IMG/VR virus record: IMGVR_UViG_2548876959_000020
Location: 1-6,200 of that record
Length of the DNA stretch: 6,200 nt
Direction: 5' to 3' (one strand)
DNA from: a virus
Lineage: Duplodnaviria > Heunggongvirae > Uroviricota > Caudoviricetes
Numbering within the stretch: position 1 is the first letter of the stretch; every line of letters begins with the position of its first letter. Positions 1 through 6,200 of the stretch are shown here, in pieces. The position numbers and the translations under genes are program-made. The notes beneath the pieces were generated by a model. That model saw only the letters and a program-made list of their open reading frames with translations, was not told the DNA's origin and ran no database searches.

Positions 1-969
1 ATGAGTGAAGTAACAGATTTAGTTGTTATTGAAAAAGCAAATGCAATGACTGTATTTCAGCATGCCGACCAGATTGAAGAAATCCTTCAAAAGGTTGAAC
101 GTGAAGTTATGTCCTTTGTGCCTGATATCACAACGGCAAAGGGCAGAAAGGAGATCGCTTCTCTGGCGTATAAAGTTGCGCAGACGAAAACATATCTCGA
201 TGGTATTGGCAAAGACCTTGTTGCTGAACTGAAGGAAATTCCAAAGCTAATTGATGCCAACCGCAAGACAGTGCGCGATCGCCTTGATGAACTGAAAGCC
301 AAGGCGCGCCAGCCTCTTACTGATTATGAGTGGGAGCAGGCACGGATTAAAGCCGAAGAAGAAGCTAAGGCAGCAGCTGAAGCTCTCGCAAAGCAAATTG
401 AGTCTGACCATGAAATAGCGATTTTGATGGATCGCGAATTTGACCGCCAAAGAGAAGAGGCAAGACTCAAAACGGAGCAGGAAAAGCGAGAGCATGAAGA
501 ACGCTTAAAAAGAGAGGCTGAAGAGAAAGCCAGAGCTGAAGCCGAAGCAAAGGCAAAAGCCGAAATTGAAGCAGCAGCAAGGCGAGAAGCAGAAGCTAAG
601 GCCGCAGCGGAACGTGCAGAGCGTGAACGCATTGAAGCCGAGCAACGAGCACAGCGCGAAGCAAAAGAGGCAGCAGAACGAGCTGAAAGAGAAAAGCAGG
701 CAGCAATTGAAGCAGAACGCAGAAAAGCACAGGAGGAGGCTGAACGAATCCGTCGCGAGGCTGAAGCAAAAGAGCAAGCCAGAATAGCAGAAGAAAAAAG
801 AATCAAGGACGAAGAAGAGCGTAGAGCAAAGGATAAAGCTCACCGGAAAGAAGTAAATAACAAAATACTTGCTGACCTTATCAAGGTTGGTGCATCAGAA
901 GATGTTGCTAAAAATATCATAACAGCCATCGTAAAAGGCGAAGTATTCGCAACAAAAATAACCTACTAA
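1..969 (+). CDS. Hypothetical phage protein with a long E/R/K/A-rich charged helix between a globular N-terminal region and a short C-terminal region; function unknown
   Basis: 322-codon ORF, stop TAA 967-969. Residues ~115-280 are almost pure EAKA/ERAE-type repeats. The ATG sits at window position 1, so the true start could lie upstream. Confidence 0.6.
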   Translation: MSEVTDLVVIEKANAMTVFQHADQIEEILQKVEREVMSFVPDITTAKGRKEIASLAYKVAQTKTYLDGIGKDLVAELKEIPKLIDANRKTVRDRLDELKAKARQPLTDYEWEQARIKAEEEAKAAAEALAKQIESDHEIAILMDREFDRQREEARLKTEQEKREHEERLKREAEEKARAEAEAKAKAEIEAAARREAEAKAAAERAERERIEAEQRAQREAKEAAERAEREKQAAIEAERRKAQEEAERIRREAEAKEQARIAEEKRIKDEEERRAKDKAHRKEVNNKILADLIKVGASEDVAKNIITAIVKGEVFATKITY

Positions 970-993: not shown

Positions 994-1125
994 ATGATTT
1001 ACGCAATCGCGGGAGGCGCTCGCATGGGTGCCTTCCAACTAAATGAATCTTTACTTGAACGAATCACCCGTAAATTACGTGACGGATGGAAAAGAGTTGA
1101 GGTCTTATTATGCGCAATGAAATAG
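994..1125 (+). CDS. Small hypothetical protein (43 aa; alternative start ATG 1024 gives 33 aa)
   Basis: AAGGAA at 982-987 ahead of ATG 994. An internal GGGAGG at 1011-1016 sits 7 nt before ATG 1024. Its 3' end overlaps the next gene. Below the ORF-track length cutoff; translated by hand. Confidence 0.3.
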   Translation: MIYAIAGGARMGAFQLNESLLERITRKLRDGWKRVEVLLCAMK

Positions 1126-1262
1126 CCATCAATCACCAGATGCTTCGTGCTGCACAAAACAAAGCAGTAATAGCCAGATTTATTGGTGATTCCAAAATGT
1201 GGCTTGAAGCAAATAAAGCGATGAAATCAGCTATCAACCTTCCGTGGTATCGCAGGAAATGA
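1110..1262 (+). CDS. Small protein (50 aa), possibly a Kil-like host cell-division inhibitor
   Basis: GAGG at 1100-1103, 6 nt before ATG 1110. Translation MRNEIAINHQMLRAAQNKAVIARFIGDSKMWLEANKAMKSAINLPWYRRK. The FIGD-K-M region resembles my recollection of lambda Kil, and the gene sits just upstream of the recombination genes as kil does in lambda. Not verified. Confidence 0.4.
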   Translation: MRNEIAINHQMLRAAQNKAVIARFIGDSKMWLEANKAMKSAINLPWYRRK

Positions 1263-1429
1263 GTTTTACAGATAACTGGTCAGACGAAGAATTCATTCGT
1301 CAGATGAAAGAATTAATCGGTAACGAAGGAGATATTCATGTCACTTGCAACCACAGTGAAGGAGAGCAAGTTACAGAGACGCATGTACACGCAGCAGGCG
1401 TTAATGTATCGCCAGAAGGGAGATCGTGA
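1259..1429 (+). CDS. Small hypothetical protein (56 aa)
   Basis: ATG 1259 overlaps the upstream stop as ATGA (1259-1262). No properly spaced Shine-Dalgarno. Overlaps the better-supported ORF 1338-1508 by 92 nt in another frame, so at most one may be fully real. Confidence 0.3.
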   Translation: MSFTDNWSDEEFIRQMKELIGNEGDIHVTCNHSEGEQVTETHVHAAGVNVSPEGRS

Positions 1430-1508
1430 AGGTGTTCGCGTATTTTTAAATGCGGCAAAGACTGAAGTATTAAATCAGCGTTATTTCCTTGGGCCATGTC
1501 CATTCTGA
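1338..1508 (+). CDS. Small hypothetical protein (56 aa)
   Basis: GAAGGAG at 1325-1331, 6 nt before ATG 1338. Stop TGA 1506-1508 overlaps the RBS of the downstream SSAP gene. Translation MSLATTVKESKLQRRMYTQQALMYRQKGDREGVRVFLNAAKTEVLNQRYFLGPCPF. Not in the ORF track (below cutoff). Confidence 0.4.
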   Translation: MSLATTVKESKLQRRMYTQQALMYRQKGDREGVRVFLNAAKTEVLNQRYFLGPCPF

Positions 1509-1516
1509 GGTGAATT

Positions 1517-2224
1517 ATGGATTTGAATAAATTCGATGAGCCATTCAGCCCTGAAGATATCGAATGGCGAATACAGCAAAGCGGTAAAACACGCGATGGC
1601 AAGGTGTGGGCTATGGTGCTGGCTTATGTCACGAACCGGGCAATCATGAAACGCCTGGACGATGTTTGCGGCAAAGCAGGATGGCGCAATGAATACCGCG
1701 ATATTCCCAACAACGGCGGCGTTGAATGCGGCATATCAATCAAGATTGATTCCGAATGGGTAACCAAATGGGATGCTGCTGAAAACACGCAGGTAGAAGC
1801 CGTCAAAGGCGGTCGTTCCGGTGCAATGAAGCGCGCTGCCGTTCAGTGGGGAATCGGTCGGTATCTGTATAACCTTGAGGAAGGTTTCGCACAAACATCT
1901 CTCGATAAAAAGCAGGGGTGGCACAGGGCAAAACTGAAGGATGGAACAGGATTTTACTGGTCCCCTCCATCGCTGCCGGGATGGGCAATCCCAGCATCAG
2001 ATAACAAACCATCACCAGAAAATACCAACCAGAAATCTCCATCGGTTGACTGCGAACAAATTCTGAAAGAATTCAGCGATTATGTGTCAACAGAAACTGA
2101 CAAGAAAAAACTCATCGAGCGTTATCAGCGTGACTGGCAATTAATGGCTGGAAACGAGGAGGCGCAGGCTAAATGCGTTCAGGTAATGAACATCAGAGTT
2201 AACGAACTAAAACAGGCGGCATAA
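1517..2224 (+). CDS. Rad52/Sak-family single-strand annealing protein (phage recombinase)
   Basis: 235 aa. N-terminal region (WAMVLAYVTNRAIMKRLDDVCGKAGWRNEY ... GGRSGAMKRAAVQWGIGRYLY) matches the Rad52/Rad22 annealing-domain pattern. GAGG at 1507-1510 precedes ATG 1517. Immediately followed by an SSB gene. Confidence 0.75.
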   Translation: MDLNKFDEPFSPEDIEWRIQQSGKTRDGKVWAMVLAYVTNRAIMKRLDDVCGKAGWRNEYRDIPNNGGVECGISIKIDSEWVTKWDAAENTQVEAVKGGRSGAMKRAAVQWGIGRYLYNLEEGFAQTSLDKKQGWHRAKLKDGTGFYWSPPSLPGWAIPASDNKPSPENTNQKSPSVDCEQILKEFSDYVSTETDKKKLIERYQRDWQLMAGNEEAQAKCVQVMNIRVNELKQAA

Positions 2225-2740
2225 ATGGCAATCAGAGGCGTAAATAAGGTGATCATTATTGGTCGCCTTGGGCATGATCCAGAAATCAGATATTCACCAT
2301 CAGGAACGGCATTTGCAAACCTTACAGTTGCTACGTCAGAACAGTGGCGTGATAAGCAAACTGGAGAGCAAAAGGAGCAGACGGAGTGGCACCGTGTGGT
2401 AATGAGCGGGAAACTGGCAGAAATTGCCAGCGAATATCTGCGAAAAGGCTCTGAGGTTTATCTTGAAGGCAAATTGCGGACAAGAAAATGGCAGGATCAA
2501 AGCGGACAGGATCGGTTCACTACCGAAGTCATCGTGGGCGTTGGTGGAACCATGCAAATGCTTGGTGGCAAGCAAGGAGGCAATGAACAGTCTTCACCTC
2601 AGCGAAATAACGGTCAGCAACAAAGACAGCAATCTCAGCAGCAGGGGAATCACAGCGAACCACCTATGGATTTTGACGACGATATCCCCTTTGCACCAGT
2701 AACTCTCCCCTTCCCTCGTCACGCTATTCACGCAATTTAA
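2225..2740 (+). CDS. ssb: Single-stranded DNA-binding protein (prophage SSB) with a C-terminal extension beyond DDDIPF
   Basis: 171 aa. OB-fold region closely resembles E. coli SSB ([48 protein letters not shown]). Q-rich linker, then [11 protein letters not shown] followed by 15 more residues ([15 protein letters not shown]) before TAA. ATG 2225 abuts the upstream stop (TAAATG). Confidence 0.9.
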
Positions 2741-2753
2741 TCAGGAGAAAATC

Positions 2754-3050
2754 ATGCCAGCGCCTCTGTATGGTGCGGATGACGTGCGCCGCTGTTCCGG
2801 CAAATCCGTATCGGAGGTGCTGGATAAATTCAGAAAAAACTACGACCTGATAATGTCTCTACCGCAGGAAACGAAAGAGGAAAAGGAATTTCGCCACTGT
2901 ATATGGCTTGCAGAGAAAGAAGAACGAGAGCGAATTTACCAGACATCAATCCGACCATTCCGCAAAGCCACATATACCCACTTCCCTGAATATATCGACC
3001 CGCGCCTGCGTAATTACCGCTCACGCTATGGCGCTATCAGTAATGACTGA
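2754..3050 (+). CDS. Hypothetical phage protein (98 aa), unknown function
   Basis: AGGAG at 2742-2746 ahead of ATG 2754. Ends TGA 3048-3050. No recognisable motif. Confidence 0.55.
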
Positions 3051-3911: not shown

Positions 3912-4091
3912 ATGTCTTGTCCAAAATGCGGTTCTGGAAATATTGCAAAAGAAAAAACAATGCGTGGATGGTCTGGTGATTATGTGTGCTGCGATTGCGG
4001 ATACAACGACTCTAAAGACGCATTTGGAGAGCGTGGTAAAAACGAGTTTGTTAAAATTAATAAAGAACGCGAAGGCAACGAAAAAAGCTAA
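3912..4091 (+). CDS. Small zinc-ribbon protein (59 aa; CPKC ... CCDC)
   Basis: GGAGG just upstream of ATG 3912. Two Cys pairs (C-P-K-C and C-C-D-C) 19 residues apart, Lys/Glu-rich tail. The ORF track's ATG 3879 start would place the RBS inside the gene. Confidence 0.55.
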   Translation: MSCPKCGSGNIAKEKTMRGWSGDYVCCDCGYNDSKDAFGERGKNEFVKINKEREGNEKS

Positions 4092-4156
4092 TTTATTTAT
4101 TCATATATGAAAACAATGTAACCAATATTCGAATTGAAGAACTGAAAGAACACCAA

Positions 4157-4180
4157 GCCGCCTGATGGCGGTTTTTTATT
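4157..4180 (+). terminator. Putative Rho-independent terminator after the zinc-ribbon gene
   Basis: GC-rich hairpin GCCGCC-TGAT-GGCGG followed by TTTTTTATT, 66 nt downstream of the stop at 4091. Confidence 0.5.
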
Positions 4181-4187
4181 GCCTGAT

Positions 4188-4203
4188 TTGCAGGTTCGAT
4201 TCC
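4188..4203 (+). other. tRNA-Arg (argW) T-arm fragment: 16-nt identity to the tRNA 5' T-stem and T-loop
   Basis: TTGCAGGTTCGATTCC matches the argW segment immediately preceding the att core as I recall it; the T-stem 3' strand is not completed (CCcta instead of CCTGC). Confidence 0.45.
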
Positions 4204-4222
4204 CTATTCGGAGATAGCACTC

Positions 4223-4423
4223 ATGCAACACGAACTACAGCCTGATTCACTGGTTGATTTGAAATTCATCATGGCTGATACTGGCTTCGGTAAGACCTTC
4301 ATCTATGACCGGATTAAGTCCGGCGACCTGCCAAAAGCCAAAGTTATCCACGGTCGAGCAAGATGGTTATATCGCGACCATTGTGAATTCAAAAATAAGC
4401 TCTTAAGCCGCGCCAATGGGTAA
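4223..4423 (+). CDS. torI: TorI-type excisionase / recombination directionality factor (AlpA/Xis family winged helix)
   Basis: 66 aa, MQHELQPDSLVDLKFIMADTGFGKTFIYDRIKSGDLPKAKVIHGRARWLYRDHCEF..., which I recognise as E. coli TorI (the KplE1 excisionase). GGAG is 9 nt before the ATG. Lies immediately before the att core. Confidence 0.8.
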   Translation: MQHELQPDSLVDLKFIMADTGFGKTFIYDRIKSGDLPKAKVIHGRARWLYRDHCEFKNKLLSRANG

Positions 4424-4952: not shown

Positions 4953-6200
4953 CTATATTGCTGAAGGTACAGGCGTTTCCATAACTATTTGCTCGCGTTT
5001 TTTACTCAAGAAGAAAATGCCAAATAGCAACATCAGGCAGACAATACCCGAAATTGCGAAGAAAACTGTCTGGTAGCCTGCGTGGTCAAAGAGTATCCCA
5101 GTCGGCGTTGAAAGCAGCACAATCCCAAGCGAACTGGCAATTTGAAAACCAATCAGAAAGATCGTCGACGACAGGCGCTTATCAAAGTTTGCCACGCTGT
5201 ATTTGAAGACGGATATGACACAAAGTGGAACCTCAATGGCATGTAACAACTTCACTAATGAAATAATCCAGGGGTTAACGAACAGCGCGCAGGAAAGGAT
5301 ACGCAACGCCATAATCACAACTCCGATAAGTAATGCATTTTTTGGCCCTACCCGATTCACAAAGAAAGGAATAATCGCCATGCACAGCGCTTCGAGTACC
5401 ACCTGGAATGAGTTGAGATAACCATACAGGCGCGTTCCTACATCGTGTGATTCGAATAAACCTGCATAAAAGACAGGAAAAAGTTGTTGATCAAAAATGT
5501 TATAGAAAGACCACGTCCCCACAATAAATATGACGAAAACCCAGAAGTTTCGATCCTTGAAAACTGCGATAAAATCCTCTTTTTTTACCCCTCCCGCATC
5601 TGCCGCTACGCACTGGTGATCCTTATCTTTAAAACGCATGTTGATCATCATAAATACAGCGCCAAATAGCGAGACCAACCAGAAGTTGATATGGGGACTG
5701 ATACTAAAAAATATGCCGGCAAAGAACGCGCCAATAGCATAGCCAAAAGATCCCCAGGCGCGCGCTGTTCCATATTCGAAATGAAAATTTCGCGCCATTT
5801 TTTCGGTGAAGCTATCAAGCAAACCGCATCCCGCCAGATACCCCAAGCCAAAAAATAGCGCCCCCAGAATTAGACCTACAGAAAAATTGCTTTGCAGTAA
5901 CGGTTCATAAACGTAAATCATAAACGGTCCGGTCAAGACCAGGATGAAACTCATACACCAGATGAGCGGTTTCTTCAGACCGAGTTTATCCTGAACGATG
6001 CCGTAGAACATCATAAATAGAATGCTGGTAAACTGGTTGACCGAATAAAGTGTACCTAATTCCGTCCCTGTCAACCCTAGATGTCCTTTCAGCCAAATAG
6101 CGTATAACGACCACCACAGCGACCAGGAAATAAAAAAGAGAAATGAGTAACTGGATGCAAAACGATAGTACGCATTTCTGAATGGAATATTCAGTGCCAT
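4953..6200 (-). CDS. cscB: Sucrose:H+ symporter CscB (LacY-family oligosaccharide permease, MFS)
   Basis: 415-aa hydrophobic ORF. N-terminus MALNIPFRNAYYRFASSYSFLFFISWSLWW and overall pattern are LacY-like; I recognise it as E. coli CscB. Start codon is the last three bases of the window. Confidence 0.88.
   Translation of the reverse strand: MALNIPFRNAYYRFASSYSFLFFISWSLWWSLYAIWLKGHLGLTGTELGTLYSVNQFTSILFMMFYGIVQDKLGLKKPLIWCMSFILVLTGPFMIYVYEPLLQSNFSVGLILGALFFGLGYLAGCGLLDSFTEKMARNFHFEYGTARAWGSFGYAIGAFFAGIFFSISPHINFWLVSLFGAVFMMINMRFKDKDHQCVAADAGGVKKEDFIAVFKDRNFWVFVIFIVGTWSFYNIFDQQLFPVFYAGLFESHDVGTRLYGYLNSFQVVLEALCMAIIPFFVNRVGPKNALLIGVVIMALRILSCALFVNPWIISLVKLLHAIEVPLCVISVFKYSVANFDKRLSSTIFLIGFQIASSLGIVLLSTPTGILFDHAGYQTVFFAISGIVCLMLLFGIFFLSKKREQIVMETPVPSAI

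Follow-up and report, generated by a model that had tools for sequence, protein, structure and literature searches.

Overlapping cIII, kil and two further minigenes ahead of the recombination module in a probable lambdoid PL operon

Introduction

Positions 994 to 1508 of the window analysed here (the whole stretch of 6,200 nt of viral DNA) very probably constitute the middle of the PL (leftward early) operon of a lambdoid prophage of the HK022 / HK75 / Sf6 type, in which four translationally linked minigenes lead into the recombination module. These genes are cIII, kil and two small genes designated ORF3 and ORF4, and their identities, coding status, selection patterns and synteny are documented below. 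The arrangement is a standard PL-operon layout and is already known, having been annotated in HK022, HK97, Sf6 and many other phages. The locus is matched in 2,185 of 5,426 complete Escherichia coli genomes (~40%), and IMG/VR yielded 457 related loci. Since the genes have been named from the HK97, HK022 and Sf6 genome papers onward and the sequence is common, the finding as stated matters little in itself. It does offer a clear case of two genes overlapping out of frame in which the selected frame can be identified. It also places ORF4, a former orphan in HK620, in a compact family adjoining strand-annealing recombinases of three sequence families, and by virtue of this adjacency it is a well-defined and inexpensive candidate accessory factor for Erf-, Rad52- and Sak4-type recombineering. 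Finally, it draws attention to ORF3-type genes, which PGAP and several phage annotations systematically leave out.

Layout and coding status of the minigenes

All features annotated here lie on the + strand. The window opens, upstream of cIII, with the gene of a 322-aa coiled-coil early protein resembling Sf6 gp33 (1..969; ORF list; phrog_1376, E=4.6e-109). This protein has no Pfam match, and PGAP names it hypothetical, coiled-coil or 'TolA'. The four frames that follow had been proposed in an earlier sequence-only reading as tiny early genes, one of them possibly Kil-like, and the ORF list and the sequence bear them out: 994-1125 (43 aa), 1110-1262 (50 aa), 1259-1429 (56 aa) and 1338-1508 (56 aa). 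The start/stop overlap announced at the kil-ORF3 junction is read directly from the sequence as ATG 1259-1261 and TGA 1260-1262, and the 92 nt said to be shared by the last two genes in different frames correspond to the stretch 1338-1429. To these can be added a 16-nt overlap between cIII and kil (1110-1125), absent from that reading, and an alternative GTG start at 1244 that would give ORF3 61 aa as against the 56 aa counted from ATG 1259.

Shine-Dalgarno (SD) pairing was referred to all 126 ATGs in the window (median -2.8, 5th percentile -7.4 kcal/mol). The starts of cIII (994) and kil (1110) reach -6.2 and -6.6 kcal/mol, respectively, and the start of ORF3 (1259) only -4.3 kcal/mol with a weak and badly spaced SD. 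The strongest SD of the region belongs to ORF4: an AAGGAG at 1326..1331, inside ORF3 and separated from ATG 1338 by a 6-nt spacer, pairs at -8.8 kcal/mol, beyond the 5th percentile. The good ribosome-binding sites noted for 1110 and 1338 are present.

Each of the four frames matches a protein family in Pfam or PHROG and is thus more than a chance ORF, and substitution patterns show that the ORF4 frame, as well as ORF3 over its first ~22 codons, is under purifying selection. NCBIfam returned no match for any of the four minigenes, and the antisense ORFs 999-1157 and 1336-1602 matched no PHROG family. Rfam and tRNA scans of the window found nothing, and a promoter and terminator scan of 900-1600 stayed at background level.

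cIII and kil

The 43-aa ORF (994..1125) had been listed as a tiny gene, correctly, and left unnamed; by its sequence it is CIII. It matches Pfam PF02061 (E=4e-15, 56 bits, gathering cut-off 25.7) and phrog_550 (E=1.6e-20), and it is 69% identical to lambda CIII over 35 aa, a region that includes ESLLERITRKLRDGWKR, itself identical in both proteins. PGAP calls the matching gene CIII in the near-identical prophage L001. The window product shares with lambda CIII the central ESLLERITRKLRDGWKR helix, the position and the overlap with kil, and differs from it in having 43 rather than 54 aa and another C-terminal end. Residues ~14-37 of lambda CIII, the conserved central helix region, carry the FtsH-inhibitory activity. 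By homology, the window protein would be an FtsH-inhibitory lysogeny factor, its action stabilising CII and favouring lysogeny; a CII-family regulator is annotated in L001.

The 50-aa product of the next gene (1110..1262) had been likened to the lambda Kil peptide, and this likeness is sustained. The product covers positions 1-31 of the 31 positions of Pfam PF06301 (Lambda_Kil; E=1.7e-20, 72.6 bits, cut-off 27.6), matches phrog_2055 (E=1.2e-35) and aligns with lambda Kil by BLASTP with 17 of 30 residues identical (57%, E=3e-9). The 'FIGD-K-M' motif pointed out in the earlier reading appears as RFIGDSKMW in the window and TFIGDEKMF in lambda, and the gene order given there for lambda is also correct, kil lying between cIII and gam-bet in lambda. 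PGAP labels the gene 'kil' in near-identical loci. By profile, BLASTP, PGAP annotation and synteny, the peptide is a true lambda-type Kil. Lambda Kil blocks FtsZ-ring assembly and causes filamentation on expression (PMC3961180), and its homologue in the window would be expected to inhibit host cell division in the same way once the operon is derepressed.

Beyond the common core IA.FIGD.KM..EA, the two kil genes both come directly after cIII with an overlap of its 3' end and both precede the PL recombination genes. The window product differs by an N-terminal extension of 8 residues and by its C-terminus, INLPWYRRK. The genes downstream are also different: two minigenes followed by a Rad52-like recombinase, an SSB and Abc2 in the window, and gam-bet-exo in lambda. 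A suggested link to Rac KilR did not hold, as none of the four ORFs matched the Pfam KilR family (PF27398) at E<=1. KilR is likewise a small prophage division inhibitor encoded in an early operon but belongs to a family distinct from that of the window Kil; in one divergent relative, L103, it is found in the place of kil.

ORF4 and its attachment to the recombination module

ORF4 (1338..1508) encodes a 56-aa basic protein that matches phrog_1723 over its full length (E=4.5e-34, residues 1-56). HK620 HkaM matches the same profile (E=3.6e-33) and is 33% identical to ORF4 by BLASTP (E=4e-9). With the family of HkaM, HK97 gp42 and Sf6 gp29, ORF4 has in common its size, its place immediately 5' of a recombinase gene and the invariant residues S10, A21, E43, F50, P55 and F56. 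The family C-terminus reads FLG..PF-COOH, F50, P55 and F56 being invariant in 19 members. HkaM had been termed an orphan (PMC5928155); on these sequence matches it is now linked to a family distributed among (pro)phages of Escherichia, Shigella, Salmonella, Klebsiella, Erwinia and Pseudocitrobacter. PGAP lists ORF4 as hypothetical (WP_000050554.1). PHROG 1723 bears the label 'recombinase', which is unsupported.

The AlphaFold2 (AF2) model of ORF4 predicts a two-helix hairpin (helices 7-27 and 30-51, pLDDT 88). No relative of ORF4 was found in Pfam, NCBIfam or the PDB: with the model as query, Foldseek retrieved nothing from the PDB but generic helical hairpins and designed minibinders at E>=1, and a sequence-profile search of the PDB yielded one designed repeat protein at E=0.05. 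Literature searches on gp42.1, HkaM or early-left small genes brought up PMC5928155 as the sole functional study.

The gene following ORF4 encodes a Rad52/Rad22-family single-strand annealing protein of 235 aa (1517..2224; Pfam PF04098, E=4.8e-26; phrog_1097, E=2.3e-129), called Rad52/Rad22 family DNA repair protein by PGAP. Its SD, GAGGTGA at 1507..1513 (-6.9 kcal/mol), overlaps the ORF4 stop TGA at 1506-1508. A phage SSB of 171 aa comes next in the same module (2225..2740; TIGR00621, E=1.9e-54, residues 4-156) and carries a 15-aa extension after DDDIPF, shared by all 18 related loci. The module ends with an Abc2-type anti-RecBCD protein (2754..3050), the L001 match of which PGAP names 'phage anti-RecBCD protein'. 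An anti-RecBCD protein, an SSB and an annealing protein together make this module HK75-class, according to the classes described in PMC12315714.

The spacer separating ORF4 from the recombinase gene measures 8 nt in the window and 8, 10 or 11 nt in 87 of 88 loci, these 87 being the ones in which the recombinase start was found. Within this 88-locus set, one and the same ORF4 allele is found ahead of Erf (52 loci) and of a Rad52-like recombinase (34 loci), and a Sak4-like recombinase is also encountered downstream of ORF4. Divergent ORF4 homologues are followed by an Erf or Sak4-like gene wherever the contig reaches the next gene (L101 ends at ORF4). The exceptions to adjacency are an HNH gene inserted in L009 and a 50-nt gap in contig L102. 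The upstream partner of ORF4, for its part, varies between lineages. Mosaic joints fall exactly at 994, 1108, 1259 and 1509, so that ORF3 and ORF4 move as one unit. The generic host-takeover role initially proposed for small proteins in this slot thus gives way to a connection with the recombination module, and synteny suggests for ORF3 and ORF4 a role in recombination, in which ORF4 may assist or regulate strand annealing by the phage system.

ORF3, a probable counterpart of P22 Arf

ORF3 (1259..1429) is a 56-aa acidic minigene of the HK022 gp42.1 / Sf6 gp30 family (phrog_2123, E=4e-40), annotated in HK022 and Sf6 and omitted by PGAP. Its start relies on the ATGA stop/start overlap (1259..1262) that couples its translation to kil, ribosomes terminating at kil presumably initiating ORF3 there. 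An ATGA or GTGA also couples ORF3 to another upstream gene, a cIII-like ORF, in L004, L010, L099 and L189. Its conserved part comprises the N-terminal ~22 aa, MSFTDNWSDEEFIRQMKELIGN, with an Arf-like motif within, and is followed by an unconstrained tail of 30 codons. These ~22 residues, predicted to be helical and carrying the motif WSDEEFIRQM, would form the functional part of the protein, the remaining 30 codons representing a run-on through the ORF4 start with no protein-level constraint. The N-terminal module heads three different tails and is always found at the front of a recombination module, RecT modules included. A programmed +1 frameshift at the ORF3 stop (TCG-TGA-A after GGGAG) was considered and rejected: the Sf6-type allele stops elsewhere (E53*) and there is no slippery codon.

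By position, ORF3 is the counterpart of P22 Arf, and probably also by function, as an accessory recombination gene, homology between the two being unproven. Arf was defined genetically as stimulating Erf-dependent recombination or phage growth, according to the citation of Poteete et al. (1991) in PMC12315714. Both proteins (PF17585 and PHROG 2445 for Arf) are small and very acidic, with net charges of -8 for ORF3 and -11 for Arf, both stand at the front of the recombination module and both are started by an overlap with the upstream gene; in UAB_Phi20, Arf overlaps kil by 11 nt. They also share [FW]SDEEFI at residues 5-13. Profile matches are weak but recur. ORF3 gives no match at E<=1 to the Pfam Arf model PF17585, which all true Arf proteins carry, and only a weak one to the Arf profile phrog_2445 (E=0.042), the same part of which is weakly matched by four divergent ORF3 members (E=0.00084-0.07). 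Comparing ORF3 with Arf, hhalign reports P=8.4e-4 with a probability of only 24% over 18 columns. The C-terminal two-thirds of ORF3 are unrelated to Arf, and Arf abuts the recombinase directly in P22-type phages whereas ORF4 lies between ORF3 and the recombinase in the window.

Selection in the overlapping frames

A first set of polymorphisms came from loci chosen for 100% ORF4 identity; because it was biased for ORF4, it was set aside and the analysis was repeated on loci chosen through Kil. At the shallow divergence of these loci, ORF4 shows 18 synonymous to 6 non-synonymous polymorphisms (p=1e-7). Within the overlap the ratio is 7 to 3 in the ORF4 frame (p=9e-4) and 0 to 10 in the ORF3 frame, none of the changes falling at a third codon position of ORF3. 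The deeper comparison with the Pseudocitrobacter locus L099 gives the same picture, with pS=0.86 and pN=0.22 for ORF4 (deep-divergence range: pS 0.86-0.90, pN 0.22-0.44) and pN (0.41) exceeding pS (0.14) in the ORF3 frame of the overlap. The selected frame in the overlap is that of ORF4, and the tail of ORF3 is its unconstrained passenger. The overlap of two genes in different frames thus stands as previously described; an equal partnership between them does not. The arrangement is also particular to some phages: in the window the first 30 codons of ORF4 are overlapped by ORF3, but ORF4 stands alone in HK620, Erwinia phage vB_EhrS_59 and Salmonella phage ABTNLsp11242.

Codons 1-22 of ORF3 behave differently from its tail. 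Against L099, at 68% nucleotide identity, they show pS=0.81 and pN=0.25, compared with pS/pN of 0.47/0.34 and 0.23/0.34 in the other two frames across the same codons. ORF3 polymorphisms are distributed 1 : 6 : 11 over the codon positions, with an enrichment of the third (p=0.016). No constraint on ORF3 is detectable at shallow divergence, where 5 synonymous and 13 non-synonymous changes (p=0.14) are no different from neutral. Nonsense variants exist (S8* and Q37*), and the indels, all of which preserve the frame, comprise a deletion of 15 nt in phiKp_30 and duplications of 21 nt in P0029 and P0036.

Alternative interpretations

The ambiguous record of ORF3 invites a simpler account, in which only three genes are real and ORF4 is the sole gene between kil and the recombinase, as in PGAP, ORF3 being a non-functional open frame. 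PGAP omits ORF3, its SD is weak, its stop shifts between alleles (56 aa vs 52 aa) and, as seen above, nonsense variants occur, the shallow ratio of 5 : 13 cannot be told from neutrality and the overlap looks unselected in its frame (all 10 polymorphisms non-synonymous; pN 0.41 > pS 0.14 vs L099). We nevertheless regard this account as unlikely: the first 22 codons keep their amino acids (pS 0.81 vs pN 0.25), every observed indel is in frame, the start/stop coupling is kept with three different upstream genes, the N-terminal module is found on three tails and always at the front of the recombination module, and the DEEFI motif is common to ORF3 and the genetically defined P22 arf. The opposite proposal, that ORF3 and ORF4 are halves of one protein, joined through programmed frameshifting or, as in HK97 gp42 (83 aa), by a fusion that would be the normal state, appears very improbable. 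It draws on HK97, where residues 1-43 of ORF3 are fused in frame to residues ~17-56 of ORF4, on a similar fusion (P0056) on 36 contigs, on many 82-aa fusions in a large protein collection and on the opposite character of the acidic ORF3 and the basic ORF4. However, just 1-2 of the 53 A/B-type loci chosen through Kil are fused, and most database fusions are singletons with differing junctions, a pattern to be expected if sequencing errors or mutations of single bases gave rise to them. Moreover, the two main alleles end ORF3 at different positions, there is no conserved slippery site, and ORF4, which possesses a strong SD of its own, is found in other phages that lack ORF3. The AF2 model of a natural fusion, P0010, joining ORF3(1-26) to ORF4, is of low confidence (pLDDT 57, pTM 0.38).

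Other alternatives accept both genes and concern their function. One or both could be host-takeover or anti-defence factors whose linkage to the recombinase reflects mere co-expression, ORF3 possibly being an acidic DNA mimic and ORF4 a protein that imitates the C-terminal tip of SSB and so draws away host proteins that bind SSB. ORF3 and Arf are indeed small and strongly acidic, and DNA mimicry has been suggested for Arf (PMC9836394); 19 of 19 ORF4-family members end in P-F-COOH, resembling the SSB tip IPF; and the slot corresponds to that of lambda gam, an anti-RecBCD gene. In addition, HkaM is dispensable for oligonucleotide recombineering by Sak4, since HK620 Sak4 and SSB alone reproduced the activity of the whole module (PMC5928155). 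Yet the minigenes show no similarity to known anti-defence families in Pfam, PHROGs or NCBIfam, the ORF4 tail is devoid of the acidic residues of the SSB tip, and Abc2 already provides the module with an anti-RecBCD function. The strict 8-11 nt adjacency to recombinases of three sequence families (Erf, Rad52-like and Sak4) argues instead for a recombination link, and we consider takeover unlikely. Least credible of all is the notion that ORF4 is a divergent paralogue of the adjacent kil and encodes a second division inhibitor of the Kil type. Both are basic helical hairpins of ~50 aa with an 'A..R..GD' turn, and hhalign aligned a narrow ORF4 alignment with the window Kil at P=0.001 over 32 columns. 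This match was lost once broader profiles were used for the two families (1% probability, P=0.046 over 16 columns), and no ORF4-family member matches Pfam Lambda_Kil even at E<=10, and so the paralogue was rejected.

A possible adaptor of strand-annealing systems

The reading retained here, of a PL operon in which ORF3 and ORF4 accompany the recombination module, can be extended to a more specific idea to which we give little credence: that the ORF4 / HkaM proteins are small adaptors dedicated to phage strand-annealing systems, their Pro-Phe-COOH terminus imitating the SSB tip, with ORF3 as partner or antagonist. If this were true, ORF4 would dock on the site used for SSB by recombinases or by host SSB-client proteins, and from there could either load Erf, Rad52-like or Sak4 recombinases on DNA covered by SSB or protect 3' ends against nucleases that SSB recruits. 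ORF3, as an acidic peptide resembling Arf, would be a co-translated partner or antagonist of ORF4. The relative amounts of ORF3 and ORF4 would be fixed by the gene overlap, since a ribosome translating ORF3 crosses the SD and start codon of ORF4.

A weak terminator-like hairpin followed by a T-run is also present inside ORF4 (1425..1450, +). In the consensus terminator scan that found it, 0.5 sites were expected and 1 was returned, a non-significant excess. This hairpin is possibly a tL2-type terminator read through under antitermination; the annotators of HK620 placed tL2D inside hkaM.

Organization of the early region

The window is the leftward early region of a lambdoid prophage. Its genes encode, in order, a coiled-coil protein, four minigene products, a Rad52-like annealing protein, SSB, Abc2, DUF2737, an Ea22-like protein, Eag and a TorI-like Xis, and the end of the window adjoins a cscB-like sugar transporter. 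All four minigenes lie on the plus strand: cIII (994-1125, 43 aa), kil (1110-1262, 50 aa), ORF3 (1259-1429, 56 aa counted from its ATG) and ORF4 (1338-1508, 56 aa). The sequence-only reading had described an array of overlapping tiny early genes here, one of them possibly Kil-like; the observation is confirmed and its interpretation supported. The four sets of coordinates agree with the sequence and the ORF list, the ATGA start/stop overlap is present at 1259-1262, and ORF3 and ORF4 do have 92 nt in common, read in different frames; cIII and kil share a further 16 nt. The good ribosome binding sites proposed for the starts at 1110 and 1338 have calculated Shine-Dalgarno (SD) pairing energies of -6.6 and -8.8 kcal/mol (all ATGs across the window: median -2.8, 5th percentile -7.4 kcal/mol). 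The start at 1259 reaches only -4.3 kcal/mol with poor spacing and therefore depends on coupling to kil.

Matches to the sequence 900-1600 are common: 409 phage records have one, as do 2,185 of 5,426 complete E. coli genomes. The four linked minigenes have a fixed place at the head of an HK75-class Rec module, which combines an anti-RecBCD function, an SSB and an annealing protein (PMC12315714).

Identity of cIII and kil

The first two products can be assigned by homology. The 43-aa protein, whose identity the sequence-only reading had missed, is identified as CIII by its match to Pfam PF02061 (E=4e-15) and 69% identity to lambda CIII, with an identical central stretch ESLLERITRKLRDGWKR. The 50-aa protein is likewise identified as Kil: it scores 72.6 bits against PF06301 (cut-off 27.6), matches phrog_2055 with E=1e-35 and shares 57% of 30 aligned residues with lambda Kil. 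The FIGD.KM core pointed out in the sequence-only reading is among them. The suggested comparison with Rac KilR was unproductive, as none of the minigene ORFs matched the KilR family. Lambda displays the same order of cIII, kil and recombination genes, and both genes are already named by NCBI's pipeline in near-identical loci.

ORF4 is a conserved gene adjoining phage recombinases

ORF4 is a real, conserved gene. It matches PHROG 1723 (E=4.5e-34), whose members include HK97 gp42, HK022 gp42, Sf6 gp29 and HK620 HkaM; HkaM itself matches this family with E=3.6e-33 and is 33% identical to ORF4 in pairwise comparison (E=4e-9). A profile search of 1.8 billion representatives returned only some 21 clusters; apart from fragments and a few weak matches in long proteins, all are about 56-60 aa in length, and the family is thus compact. 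Selective constraint at shallow divergence was assessed in loci picked through the neighbouring Kil protein, a sample therefore unbiased for ORF4. Of the polymorphisms in the ORF4-only part of these loci, 18 are synonymous and 6 non-synonymous (p=1e-7), distributed 5 : 2 : 17 over the codon positions. At deep divergence, pS has reached saturation (0.86-0.90), with pN at 0.22-0.44.

The protein is basic (net charge +6) and is predicted by AF2 to form a two-helix hairpin (helices 7-27 and 30-51, pLDDT 88); fold and PDB searches returned nothing useful. Residues S10, A21, E43, F50, P55 and F56 are invariant in an alignment of 19 diverse members, and all 19 terminate in Pro-Phe-COOH (1500-1505 in the window) after a conserved FLG. 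This end recalls the IPF tip of bacterial SSB. The possibility that ORF4 and Kil are paralogues was examined and rejected.

In 87 of 88 loci, the gene of a strand-annealing recombinase begins 8, 10 or 11 nt after ORF4; this recombinase is Erf in 52 loci, Rad52-like in 34 and Sak4-like in one. Divergent members also precede a recombinase in HK620, Erwinia vB_EhrS_59, Pseudocitrobacter and longer metagenome contigs. Exceptions are an HNH gene inserted between the two in one Salmonella phage, a gap of 50 nt in contig L102, and contig L101, which stops at the ORF4 gene. The SD of the window's recombinase gene (1507-1513) shares nucleotides with the stop codon of ORF4 (1506-1508). PHROG 1723 and PHROG 2123 are both labelled 'recombinase', a label that has spread into RefSeq records of Sf6, HK97 and mEp213; we found no evidence behind it for either family, and it seems to be inherited from neighbouring genes.

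A terminator-like hairpin lies inside ORF4 (1425-1450, plus strand; CGTGAAGGTGTTCGCG followed by TATTTTT) and is not above background in a terminator scan. Annotators of HK620 marked the tL2D terminator inside the homologous hkaM gene.

ORF3 is constrained only in its N-terminal part

ORF3 is real only in part. It matches PHROG 2123 (E=4e-40) and has counterparts in HK022 gp42.1 and Sf6 gp30. Phage records annotate it, whereas PGAP does not. Codons 1-22, set against their counterpart in a Pseudocitrobacter prophage at 68% nucleotide identity, show pS 0.81 and pN 0.25 in frame, against pS/pN of 0.47/0.34 and 0.23/0.34 in the two other frames. Polymorphisms in 1259-1337 favour the third ORF3 codon position (1 : 6 : 11, p=0.016), indels are in frame, and the start overlaps the stop of the upstream gene whether this is kil or a cIII-like gene. 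The shallow synonymous to non-synonymous ratio, 5 : 13, does not differ from neutral (p=0.14), and nonsense variants occur, albeit rarely. Within the 92-nt overlap, all ten polymorphisms are non-synonymous in the ORF3 frame, whereas the ORF4 frame makes seven of the ten synonymous (p=9e-4). In the comparison with the Pseudocitrobacter prophage, the ORF3 frame of the overlap has a pN (0.41) above its pS (0.14). The two main alleles alter the ORF3 tail at 11 of 12 variable sites and shift its stop. Constraint on ORF4 only is thereby demonstrated within the overlap, with the ORF3 tail (residues ~27-56) as its passenger.

Three different tails occur behind the N-terminal module MSFTDNWSDEEFIRQM. 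One tail class is a 35-aa ORF3-type gene, MSFTDNWSDEEFIRQMNKMLNQHKEQEKDDDSDSE, unannotated in the GenBank records of HK140, mEpX1 and SEN22 (901-1008 in each of the corresponding loci, L189, L190 and L191). It is ATGA-coupled to a cIII-like gene and overlaps the gene of a 103-aa acidic protein preceding RecT or RecE; genes of this class come after kil in 22 of the 79 viral contigs that were selected through Kil.

P22-type phages carry the gene order c3-kil-arf-erf. The motif [FW]SDEEFI, at residues 5-13, is common to Arf (47 aa, net charge -11) and ORF3 (net charge -8). Four divergent ORF3 members all match one part of the Arf PHROG, with E-values from 8e-4 to 0.07; hhalign of ORF3 against Arf gives P=8e-4 with a probability of 24%. 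Since ORF3 has no match to the Arf model of Pfam, we term it Arf-like, with reference to position, charge and motif; homology is not demonstrated. The mechanism of Arf itself is not established in the literature (PMC12315714; PMC9836394). In Erwinia-type relatives (L008, 1055-1204; L106, 2855-3004), a conserved 49-aa coiled-coil peptide is ATGA-joined to the following ORF4. It ends in DFDF[IFL]RALYEM, vaguely like the DEEFIRQM of ORF3 and Arf but at the C-terminus.

Mosaic joints and gene fusions

Across some 100 related loci, homology blocks have their left edges exactly at 994, 1108 or 1259, and they stop at 1509 or continue into the recombinase gene. ORF3 and ORF4 together thus behave as one exchangeable unit. 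The joints at 994, 1108, 1259 and 1509 are textbook mosaic joints at gene boundaries; one more lies within ORF3, after about codon 16.

In HK97 (L007, 1090-1341, corresponding to window 1259-1508), an indel after ORF4 codon 16 fuses ORF3 residues 1-43 in frame to ORF4 residues ~17-56, keeping the last 40 residues of ORF4. An ATT-to-ATG change (I26M) gives the fused frame a new start codon, served by the same strong SD and situated 4 nt before the former ORF4 ATG. The combination resembles a compensated frameshift, one that would keep the 40 C-terminal ORF4 residues expressed. A similar fusion occurs on 36 contigs. Fusions are rare (1-2 of 53 loci), and database examples are mostly singletons with scattered junctions. 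A search for a conserved ORF3-ORF4 frameshift site found none, for which reason programmed frameshifting was rejected.

Possible roles of the minigenes

By homology, CIII would inhibit FtsH and so stabilize CII, and Kil would block FtsZ assembly upon derepression (PMC3961180). Synteny suggests that ORF3 and ORF4 may be accessory or regulatory parts of the strand-annealing system. The sole experimental hint opposes such an accessory role for an HkaM-type ORF4 in one assay: HK620 Sak4 and SSB without HkaM reproduced all of the module's oligonucleotide-recombineering activity (PMC5928155). The best remaining lead, a long shot, is that the ORF4 family may serve as an SSB-tip-like adaptor for phage recombinases.

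Every element of this finding had been deposited and named before. What is added here is incremental: HkaM, formerly called an orphan, is linked to the gp42 family, this family adjoins recombinases of three sequence families, its terminal Pro-Phe is invariant, and ORF4 alone is constrained in the overlap.

Other features of the window

The phage SSB (2225-2740, plus strand) carries 15 further residues, including a second LPF, beyond the canonical C-terminal tip DDDIPF. The extension is found in all 18 related loci whose end was captured, and the TIGR00621 profile stops at residue 156 of 171. A masked tip could alter the choice of recruited partner proteins.

The right end of the prophage spans 3912-4423 and 4953-6200, with neither an integrase nor a tRNA gene within the window. 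It comprises an Eag-like zinc-ribbon protein (3912-4091), a terminator-like GC hairpin with a T-run near 4155-4180 and a TorI-type excisionase (4223-4423), followed by about 530 nt without a called gene and by the cscB-like oligosaccharide MFS transporter on the minus strand.
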